Shown piece after piece: positions 58,628 through 59,569 of a stretch of 64,000 nucleotides of DNA. A program made the position numbers and the translations under genes. The notes below the pieces were generated by a model that was not told where the DNA came from, did not search any database, and worked only from the letters and a program-made list of their open reading frames with translations. The stretch is taken from contig CAVYYE010000003.1 of NCBI GenBank assembly GCA_963772655.1, positions 2,545,341 through 2,609,340 of the forward strand, read 5' to 3'. This DNA comes from an uncultured delta proteobacterium. GTDB taxonomy: Bacteria; Myxococcota_A; Polyangia; Haliangiales; Haliangiaceae. Position 1 is the stretch's first letter, and every line of letters starts with the position of its first letter.

Positions 58628-59374
58628 ATGAACGCGTGTGCATCCCAACTCCCCCGTCCGGAACGCAATCGTCTGGTCTCCGAGCACGTCGAGGTGGCGC
58701 GCCGGATCTCGCTGAAGATGGCCCGTCGATGCCCCGACTGGATCCCGCGCGAGGATTTGATGGGGGCCGCGCTGGTCGGACTCGTCGAAGCCGCCGACCG
58801 CTACGACACCAGCCGCAAGGAACCGTTCCTGGCGTTCGCCGAGAAGCGGATCCGCGGTGCGGTGCTCGACGAGCTCCGACGCGGCGACATCATGCCTCGT
58901 CGCGCACGCGCGATGGCGCGCAAGATCGGCGAGACCATTCGCGATCTCGAGAAGCGAGCGGGTGGGGCGGTCACCGACGAGGCGGTCGCCCGGGCACTCG
59001 GCGTCTCGGTCGAGGACTACCGCGACAACCTCGAACAGCTCGTCCACGTCACGGTCGGTGCACTCGACGACGTTCACGAGGCCACGCTGTCGGGCGGCGA
59101 CGAGTCTCCCGAGCTCCGCGCGATCAGGCACGAGGCGATGGCGCGGATTCGCGAGGTGCTTCCCACGCTCGACCGGCGTGACCTCGTGGTGCTGGGCCTC
59201 CACTACAACGAGGAGCTGACGTACACCGAGATCGGTCAGGTGCTCGGCGTCACCACCTCGCGCGTGTGCCAGCTCCACGGCCGCGCGATCGCCTGCCTCC
59301 GGGCGGCGCTGACCGGAGCTCGTGCGAGTGCACCGGTCCGACTCAACGGTTCGCGGACCCGGCCGAGTCGGTAA
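58628..59374 (+). CDS. FliA/WhiG (sigma-28-like) family RNA polymerase sigma factor
   Basis: Region 2 reads FLAFAEKRIRGAVLDELRRGD, and region 4 reads LTYTEIGQVLGVTTSRVCQLHGRAIACLR. The start is at 58628 or the upstream 58592. Confidence 0.75.
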   Translation: MNACASQLPRPERNRLVSEHVEVARRISLKMARRCPDWIPREDLMGAALVGLVEAADRYDTSRKEPFLAFAEKRIRGAVLDELRRGDIMPRRARAMARKIGETIRDLEKRAGGAVTDEAVARALGVSVEDYRDNLEQLVHVTVGALDDVHEATLSGGDESPELRAIRHEAMARIREVLPTLDRRDLVVLGLHYNEELTYTEIGQVLGVTTSRVCQLHGRAIACLRAALTGARASAPVRLNGSRTRPSR

Positions 59375-59383
59375 CCAAGGCCC

Positions 59384-59569
59384 ATGCGTATCGTCGCTTC
59401 CCCGCCGCCCACTCCATCCACATCCCTCGACGCCGAGACCCACGCGGCGCGGATCCACGAGATCCGCGCGCTGCTCGATGCCGGGAACTACACGATAGAT
59501 CTCGACAAGCTCGCGTCGCGGATCGTCGATGCGGAGCTGATGAGGATCCGGCGATCGCCAGGTGTCTGA
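59384..59569 (+). CDS. FlgM-like anti-sigma-28 factor candidate (61 aa)
   Basis: It begins 10 nt after the sigma-factor stop. The C-terminus, IRALLDAGNYTIDLDKLASRIVDAEL, matches the FlgM sigma-28-binding helix pattern I..Ix.GxYxxDxxKxAxxxxD. Confidence 0.5.
   Translation: MRIVASPPPTPSTSLDAETHAARIHEIRALLDAGNYTIDLDKLASRIVDAELMRIRRSPGV

Follow-up and report, generated by a model that had tools for sequence, protein, structure and literature searches.

A fliA gene and a shortened flgM gene among kinase and sigma-54 activator genes in an uncultured member of the Haliangiaceae

A stretch of 64,000 nucleotides (the window) from the 2.9-Mb contig CAVYYE010000003.1 of an uncultured delta proteobacterium (Myxococcota, Haliangiaceae; assembly GCA_963772655.1) poses the question of why a sigma factor of the flagellar family and its apparent anti-sigma factor should be encoded among histidine kinases, receivers and sigma-54 activators. 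An initial annotation of the window, made from the sequence itself, had described a FliA/WhiG-type sigma factor gene at 58628-59374(+) followed 10 nt later by a 61-aa open reading frame (ORF) that resembles FlgM at its C-terminus, had stated that the window contains no flagellar genes, and had suggested that the pair is wired to the adjacent kinase and activator genes. Comparison with related genomes identifies the two genes as fliA and an internally deleted flgM (mini-flgM), which together with neighbouring regulatory genes may be what is left of a flagellar cascade at this locus.

Both ORFs are present at the coordinates first given for them (Table 1). The product of the first contains regions 2, 3 and 4 of the sigma-70 family in one protein (PF04542, 43.3 bits; PF04539, 20 bits, which is less than its own cut-off; PF04545, 50.5 bits), and the region 4 string quoted in the initial annotation, LTYTEIGQVLGVTTSRVCQLH, is present in the translation. 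Its top NCBIfam models are PRK06986 FliA and TIGR02479 FliA_WhiG (188.3 bits, E 1.6e-55; cut-off 189.6), and the shortfall of 1.3 bits on the latter is typical of the lineage and meaningless, because the FliA of a canonical flagellar cluster in a relative, L001, scores 184.3 bits. On NF005413 the window and L001 proteins score 187.4 and 186.7 bits, respectively, against a cut-off of 201; the cut-offs of TIGR02479 and NF005413 have no discriminating power in this lineage. The solved structures that match best are the FliA proteins of Pseudomonas aeruginosa, Escherichia coli and Aquifex. Assignment to the WhiG, SigF/B or extracytoplasmic function types was ruled out by far lower scores of those models (151 bits against a cut-off of 343 for the WhiG model NF004935), and the WhiG structure 7LQ4 is a weak match.

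The window FliA is 77% identical to the flagellar-cluster FliA of L001 and 73-77% identical to those of its four nearest relatives, L001-L004. Its nearest neighbour, by identity over resampled alignment columns, is L001 or L002 in 99% of 1000 rounds, and it keeps 79 of the 82 near-invariant positions of cluster FliAs, with three changes that are all conservative. By these two measures the 248-aa protein counts as a flagellar FliA orthologue that has stayed intact, and not as a divergent paralogue.

Among the at least 120 FliA homologues listed, those with an organism name come from Kofleriaceae or Deltaproteobacteria metagenome-assembled genomes (MAGs). The flagellar-cluster proteins were compared by tblastn with 79 genome loci that carry FliA relatives, of which those with the canonical cluster (class A) have a FliA 60-77% identical to that of the window and a full-length FlgM (87-103 aa) encoded ~4.7 kb after fliA. 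L001-L004 belong here, all ordered fliPQR-flhBA-flhF-flhG-fliA-flgFGAHIJ-flgM-flgN-flgKL-fliC-fliD, and the cluster of the closest FliA (P0002, 77% identity) reads fliOPQR, flhB, flhA, flhF, flhG, fliA, flgF, flgG, flgA, flgH, flgI, flgJ, flgM, an ORF in the flgN position, flgK, flgL, fliC, fliD, fliS. Class B loci are ordered fliPQR-flhBA-flhG-fliA-flgM, with a full-length FlgM encoded 157-184 nt after fliA and, 4-6 kb further on, sigma-54 activators and an orthologue (62-65% identity) of the window's hybrid response-regulator/histidine kinase (RR-HK). A second clade of FliA paralogues (class C, 53-58% identity) is encoded away from any flagellar genes, often in MAGs that also have a class A locus. 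The fourth group is small (L025, L029, L045 and L069) and resembles the window: the only genes around fliA, which may or may not have flhG with it, are those of kinases, receivers and activators. Of the genes on either side of fliA in the closest relatives (76-77% identity), the window has none.

Two further observations concern fliA in these relatives. The FliAs of the class C loci L056-L080 (e.g., L077:9950-10675) carry 7-15 changes at the 82 near-invariant positions, and no FlgM-like ORF accompanies them; an NtrC-type activator is encoded directly downstream of this FliA in L077, and activator-like matches follow it in four other loci. Among class B loci, fliA is tandemly duplicated ahead of flgM in L021 (3115-4628, two copies), and L028 (10001-12142) has one full fliA and two partial fliA-like segments ahead of flgM.

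Mini-FlgM is recognized by the FlgM profile PF04316, the check proposed for 59384..59569 in the initial annotation, by a narrow margin (25.5 bits against a gathering score of 25, over profile positions 24-55 of 55 only). On TIGR03824, which models full-length FlgM, it scores 28 bits and, because its N-terminal half is missing, stays under the cut-off of 40.75, which the full-length L001 FlgM passes (43.3 bits). Its identity to the C-terminal part of FlgM (92 aa) in the L001 flagellar cluster is 67% over 39 aa. A lineage FlgM profile, built from FlgM ORFs of the relatives and run on all ORFs of all loci, gives it 63.7 bits (E 9e-18), a score that is inflated because the mini-ORF is itself one of the 39 seeds; this profile matches the FlgM chains of the solved sigma-28 complexes 9WSF_B and 1RP3_B, and the mini-FlgM sequence alone has no phmmer match among PDB sequences. 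The codon-position GC content of the gene (0.65/0.52/0.79) fits coding in this frame.

In the alignment, mini-FlgM keeps the conserved start MRI, after which ~35 residues, including the VVxLSxAG segment, are lost or disrupted and a proline-rich linker stands in their place, followed by the conserved C-terminal two-helix region, RIHEIRALLDAGNYTIDLDKLASRIVDAELMR. The N-terminal half of Salmonella FlgM bears the signal for export through the flagellar type III system. In P. aeruginosa (9WSF), the FlgM residues in contact with sigma-4 and the other sigma-28 domains are V77, I80, I84, V96, A97, L100, L101, E104 and R107, and the first part of helix 1 touches sigma-2 (PMC12784957). All nine of these positions are identical or conservatively replaced in mini-FlgM (I24, I27, L31, L43, A44, I47, V48, E51 and R54, in the same order), in agreement with the earlier claim that its C-terminus matches the sigma-binding helix; what is missing is the variable N-terminus and the sigma-2-contacting start of helix 1. 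The predicted product is, by homology, a true FlgM with its C-terminus as the sigma-binding part, and an internally deleted derivative of 61 aa versus ~90. The window DNA is high in GC (64-72%), and a chance ORF of such a genome is ruled out by the homology, conserved start, promoter and codon-position GC of mini-flgM.

Short forms of FlgM (56-61 aa) were found by the lineage profile only in the window and in L029, L025 and L045, all three set among signalling genes. L029 encodes a 58-aa FlgM 39 nt after the fliA stop codon (PF04316, 26.9 bits), L025 a 59-aa FlgM 113 nt after fliA, and L045 a 56-aa FlgM-like ORF on the opposite strand. Searched exhaustively with mini-FlgM, 1.8 billion representative sequences gave 33 matches, nearly all of them FlgMs of 85-100 aa matched at the C-terminus, and none as short as mini-FlgM outside its own cluster; a word-indexed homologue search returned only its own cluster and one sister cluster, and a metagenome scan returned canonical clusters only. 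Two independent metagenome contigs with ~97% DNA identity to the window (L081 and L082) preserve the order of fliA end, mini-flgM, lipoprotein gene and RR-HK gene, with mini-flgM intact in both and an in-frame 3-nt indel in one. Four long proteins of the representative library (P0245, P0246, P0247 and P0258; 1056-2667 aa) each match mini-FlgM in 3-9 separate stretches, which suggests either repeat proteins of a helix motif like the FlgM C-terminus or a compositional artefact. A second small FlgM-like ORF of the window (43962-44174, minus strand) would be 54-70 aa long, according to the start codon used; its product terminates in TARMLRLRELIETGEFPDRDELAEQIVDKL, and it lies 21 nt downstream of an activator gene, 44196-45485(-). 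The lineage FlgM profile gives it 22.7 bits (hhalign probability 94.6%, E 6.5e-8), and its codon-position GC is coding-like, with no Pfam match and no relatives in the metagenome scan.

FliA-type promoters have the form TAAA-N15-GCCGATAA. A sigma-28-type promoter, CTAAA/CTCAA/CTATC-N14-GGGCGAAYCA, is common to the regions upstream of fliC in 22 canonical loci, and the top match in the window of a matrix built from these promoters falls within the terminal 33 nt of the fliA ORF, with its end 13 nt ahead of the flgM ATG. The weight of this call comes from position and homology, not from score. In 27 of the 39 loci of FlgM-bearing relatives, flgM is likewise preceded by such a motif at a distance of 8-50 nt; relatives have a lineage variant, CTAAA/CTCAA-N14-GGGCGAATCA, conserved upstream of both fliC and flgM, and one copy stands before the window flgM; and the window promoter can be aligned closely, base for base, with those of flgM in L001, L003 and L004 (CTCAACGG(A/T)TC...CCGGNCGAGTCGGT, then ATGCGTATCG), the MRI start being homologous in its DNA as well. 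As predicted from these alignments, flgM retains a sigma-28-type promoter of its own, now embedded in the 3' end of fliA. The last ~15-20 aa of the window FliA (...TGARASAPVRLNGSRTRPSR) have no counterpart in relatives and are the translation of this promoter region, through which the fliA coding sequence reads. L029 has the same junction of fliA and flgM, with the fliA stop codon kept just before the -35 element and the promoter between stop codon and flgM. The junction looks like a deletion scar, which is its simplest reading: a deletion of ~4.7 kb, corresponding to flgF-flgJ in L001, would have brought the flgM promoter up against the 3' end of fliA and would thereby account for the odd C-terminal tail of FliA.

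In the window, tblastn with 20 flagellar proteins and Pfam scans covering most of the genes called by third-position GC content turned up neither flagellar nor chemotaxis genes, in keeping with the initial annotation. The Pfam matches are to kinases, receivers, sigma-54 activators, Ser/Thr kinases, an FtsEX-like group, peptidases and others, with no motor gene among them, and the one spurious tblastn match to a flagellar protein, FlgJ, is due to an M23 domain in the gene group at 27838-32215. Beyond the window, the at least 120 matches listed for L001 FlhA, down to 75% identity, include none attributable to the source contig (2,888,863 bp), and the at least 120 FliA homologues listed include no second close FliA on it. 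In other genomes, with a FliA 65-69% identical to that of the window, FlhA and FliA are encoded on the same long contig (e.g., contigs of 1,187,425, 898,604, 310,184 and 216,403 bp).

The genes from 57224 to 62561 all lie on one strand with gaps of 9-171 nt (Table 1), and no plus-strand terminator is predicted among them. Orthologues of RR-HK (51-69% identity) are encoded downstream of fliA in L021, L022, L025, L028, L029, L031, L045 and L069, so that the two genes are syntenic in nine loci with the window included; most of these also carry a downstream sigma-54 activator, which in L029 directly follows RR-HK and is 71% identical to its window orthologue, and all but L069 have a FlgM-like ORF beside fliA. 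The window was scanned for sigma-54-type motifs with the core GG-N10-GC, scored over 11 consensus positions. The motif before the RR-HK gene, TGGCACGTTGCTGGCA, is the only one on either strand that fits at least 10 of the 11, and an equivalent motif precedes the RR-HK orthologue in seven of the eight other loci; the true start of RR-HK is probably downstream of 60216. Five matches fit at least nine positions, among them TGGCCCGGCTCTCGCA, and the candidate before fliA, GGGTCCACACGTTGCA, is the sole window match of its kind, with GG and a perfect TTGCA, and is weak on its own. The string TTGCAATCG is common to the regions upstream of fliA in the window and L069, and L025 has a one-base variant, CTGCAATCG. 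A scan of 55.5-64 kb for sigma-70 promoters and terminators found neither a promoter nor a plus-strand terminator between flgM and RR-HK.

Table 1. Genes and predicted regulatory sites around fliA and mini-flgM, in window coordinates
Feature	Position	Strand	Description	Basis
Sigma-54 activator	55696..57036	-	Divergent from the kinase upstream of fliA	Domains
Hybrid histidine kinase/receiver	57224..58465	+	Upstream of fliA, same strand	Domains
Candidate sigma-54-type promoter	58598..58613	+	GGGTCCACACGTTGCA, 14 nt before fliA ATG	8/11 consensus positions
fliA	58628..59374	+	Sigma-28 (FliA) orthologue, 248 aa	Family and domain matches
Predicted sigma-28-type flgM promoter	59342..59370	+	CTCAA-N14-GGCCGAGTCG, within fliA 3' end	Matrix match, homology
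mini-flgM	59384..59569	+	61-aa internally deleted anti-sigma-28 homologue	Family matches, alignment
Predicted lipoprotein	59582..60124	+	180 aa, 12 nt after flgM	LVGC lipobox read from sequence
Sigma-54-type promoter motif	60191..60206	+	TGGCACGTTGCTGGCA, before RR-HK gene	At least 10/11 positions
RR-HK	60198..61349	+	Hybrid response-regulator/histidine kinase (REC-HisKA-HATPase)	Domains
Sigma-54-like motif	61501..61516	+	TGGCCCGGCTCTCGCA, just before activator gene	At least 9/11 positions
Sigma-54 activator	61521..62561	+	AAA+ and HTH_8, without receiver domain	Domains
NtrC-type sigma-54 activator	62583..63971	-	REC-AAA+-HTH, convergent with operon	Domains

The predicted lipoprotein has no Pfam or NCBIfam match, and its gene is found only in the near-identical contigs L081 and L082, being absent from all other related loci. 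At this place, directly upstream of and divergent from the RR-HK orthologue, L022, L031 and L045 share a conserved pair on the minus strand, genes for a single-domain receiver and a Ser/Thr protein kinase, between flgM and RR-HK, and L025 has the kinase gene only.

Sigma-54-type motifs recur in the flagellar clusters of the lineage. Dozens of MAGs and metagenome contigs of uncultured Kofleriaceae/Haliangiales (L001-L055, L083-L085) carry a complete flagellar cluster, conserved from fliOPQR-flhBA-flhF-flhG-fliA to fliC-fliD-fliS. Cultured myxobacteria are known for gliding without flagella, and a search of the literature on flagella in Kofleriaceae and Haliangiales found nothing relevant and no paper describing these clusters. 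Within L001-L055, a sigma-54-type motif precedes flhB by 16-18 nt in 28 of 37 canonical loci (e.g., CGGCGCACGCGTTGCA), and 18 of 39 have one 33-51 nt upstream of flgH. Because these motifs are conserved, the lineage appears to run a sigma-54-dependent flagellar hierarchy, and its promoter sequences suggest a sigma-54 to sigma-28 order of the sort found in Vibrio, Pseudomonas and Legionella.

By family, FliA and mini-FlgM are a genuine sigma-28/anti-sigma-28 pair, as judged from their homologies. The best explanation of the locus, to which a probability of about 0.6 is given, is that in this Kofleriaceae-like myxobacterium a sigma-54 to sigma-28 flagellar cascade lost its structural genes from the locus by deletion and kept its regulatory core, made up of this pair, RR-HK and the sigma-54 activators. 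Transcription of fliA and of the downstream operon of RR-HK and activator would start from the sigma-54-type promoters and would therefore depend on an enhancer-binding protein, possibly one encoded by a neighbour. FliA would transcribe flgM, and mini-FlgM would sequester FliA in a negative feedback; since no terminator is predicted between them, transcription from the flgM promoter may read through into the lipoprotein and RR-HK genes. FliA is probably freed without export, because mini-FlgM has no N-terminal half and no export apparatus is encoded nearby; FlgM turnover or dilution would release it, in place of export through a finished hook-basal body. The suggestion that the pair is wired to the kinase and activator genes gains circumstantial support only, from the synteny of RR-HK in nine loci and from the sigma-54 motifs, which make wiring to the sigma-54 activators plausible.

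Like the FliA-FlgM systems of Salmonella, E. coli and P. aeruginosa (9WSF, 1RP3/1SC5, 6PMI), the window pair belongs to the same two families, with the two-helix sigma-binding region and a sigma-28-type flgM promoter, which in those systems gives negative feedback. It differs from them in a FlgM of 61 aa from which the variable N-terminal half is gone, along with the part of helix 1 that touches sigma-2, in the placement of the flgM promoter inside the fliA coding sequence, and in the lack of export apparatus or structural genes nearby. The closest functional precedent is in Legionella: the non-flagellated Legionella oakridgensis keeps only fliA and flgM, with a sigma-28-dependent flgM and a FlgM that is apparently degraded and not exported, and L. 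longbeachae keeps fliA, fleN and fleS/fleR (PMC5655016). There, as probably in the window at the level of the locus, regulators of the sigma-54 to sigma-28 cascade outlast the structural genes, and L029 and L045 parallel L. longbeachae in keeping flhG (the counterpart of FleN), a two-component kinase and an activator. Unlike the Legionella cases, the window lies in the Myxococcota and encodes an internally deleted FlgM, its loss of flagellar genes is seen at the locus only, and it is known from sequence alone. The FlgM of Helicobacter pylori, as portrayed in the summary of Rust 2009 given in PMC5655016, is short, mainly cytoplasmic and reportedly inactivated rather than exported. It is shortened like mini-FlgM and lacks the usual N-terminal region, but H. 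pylori is flagellated, its FlgM works with the FlhA export gate, and the sequence relationship is at the family level only. By analogy with the proposals for L. oakridgensis and H. pylori, release of FliA in the window organism is probably export-independent. A more distant analogy is Streptomyces WhiG, a sigma-28-family factor with non-flagellar targets in a non-flagellated organism (PMC12871210); its partner RsiG is armed by cyclic di-GMP and unrelated to FlgM, and the window protein groups with true FliA.

Several points weigh against a remnant regulatory core. The 14.9 bits of the flgM promoter match are not significant on score alone, with shuffled windows reaching 16-21 bits, and the sigma-54 motif before fliA fits just 8 of the 11 positions. 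Mini-FlgM clears the Pfam threshold by 0.5 bit and fails TIGR03824, and its ratio of nonsynonymous to synonymous polymorphism (pN/pS) among near-identical strains, 0.3-0.75, would permit relaxed constraint, although this comparison has little power because it rests on a handful of changes. FliA is conserved enough for continued flagellar duty to be plausible. The 64 kb seen leave room for flagellar genes that could sit elsewhere on the 2.9-Mb contig as a divergent set, or on other contigs, and class B FlhAs are only ~61-64% identical to the query, below the FlhA matches listed.

These last points favour the most credible alternative, a possible but not preferred one, in which the genes are an ordinary FliA/FlgM pair of a flagellated organism whose structural genes were rearranged to another place and which still times late flagellar expression. 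Close relatives are flagellated by gene content, FliA keeps 79 of 82 invariant positions, the flgM promoter is kept, class B relatives with flgM right after fliA still carry export-gate genes, and the view is limited to 64 kb. Against it stand the disappearance of all flanking genes on both sides of fliA, the failure to find a close FlhA or a second close FliA attributable to the contig among the at least 120 matches listed for each, and a FlgM without the N-terminal half in which, in Salmonella, the export signal lies.

An extension of the remnant-core explanation is tentative and itself rather doubtful: several Kofleriaceae lineages (the window, L025, L029 and L045) would independently have lost the structural genes around fliA and kept a self-contained module that now controls a non-flagellar regulon. 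The kept module would consist of a sigma-54-driven fliA, a non-exportable mini-FlgM and the RR-HK/activator pair, and FlgM turnover or a kinase-linked signal would release FliA, replacing the checkpoint of export through the hook-basal body.

That mini-flgM is a decaying, non-functional remnant, with FliA unregulated or controlled in another way, is improbable. Mini-FlgM falls short of full-length FlgM by a third and scores only marginally on the family models, pN/pS is above that of the neighbouring gene, and FlgMs of 61 aa or less are very rare among the 1.8 billion representatives; yet the start codon, reading frame, promoter and all nine contact residues are kept, the sister-strain indel is in frame and preserves the ORF, and comparable mini-FlgMs persist directly after fliA in the distant L029 and L025. 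Quite unlikely, too, is a capture of the pair by its two-component neighbours, with a kinase or receiver acting directly on FlgM or FliA by partner switching or phosphorylation in place of the export checkpoint, for although gene packing from 57224 to 62561 is tight and on a single strand, RR-HK keeps its synteny in nine loci and Ser/Thr kinase and receiver genes intervene between flgM and RR-HK in relatives, no STAS, anti-anti-sigma or other partner-switching domain is present, what the conserved promoter motifs indicate is wiring at the level of transcription, by way of sigma-54, and synteny alone does not show a link at the protein level.

Other parts of the window are also rich in signalling genes. 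The divergent pair of activator and hybrid kinase at 55696-58465 has a paralogous copy 11 kb away at 44196-46809, in which the activator (44196-45485) is 68% and the kinase (45706-46809) 51% identical to its counterpart. The kinase/receiver at 57224-58465 matches the kinase-receiver C-terminus of two developmental kinases of Myxococcus, EspC with 312 bits and EspA with 259, neither score coming near the equivalog cut-off. A hybrid histidine kinase of ~1280 aa (50684-54535, minus strand) consists of a HAMP/HAMP_2 array with 11 matched stretches followed by GAF, HisKA, HATPase and REC domains, in a region of lower GC content (0.63-0.64) than the rest of the window. The group at 27838-32215 (minus strand) is of cell-division type, with an FtsE-like ABC ATPase, an FtsX extracellular domain, an M23 peptidase and an S41 C-terminal processing peptidase.

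The FliA/FlgM pair is of a known kind, and its setting is unusual: it lies in the Myxococcota, with a shortened FlgM, at a locus stripped of structural genes. The comparison also reveals, in many uncultured Kofleriaceae/Haliangiales, complete flagellar clusters built around sigma-54 and sigma-28 promoters. If the pair serves flagella encoded elsewhere in the genome, it is an ordinary regulator at a rearranged locus. Mini-FlgM may represent a natural minimal anti-sigma-28, with the helices predicted to bind sigma-4 and sigma-3 and without the export half, and could be used to separate binding from secretion. Should a self-contained module have been kept in several lineages, the flagellar checkpoint circuit would have been repurposed repeatedly in myxobacteria. 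As the remnant core of a flagellar cascade, the locus would be a second, phylogenetically remote case, after Legionella, of a flagellar sigma/anti-sigma switch that outlives the adjacent flagellar genes, and would bear on how regulatory circuits are recycled once the machine that they served is lost.

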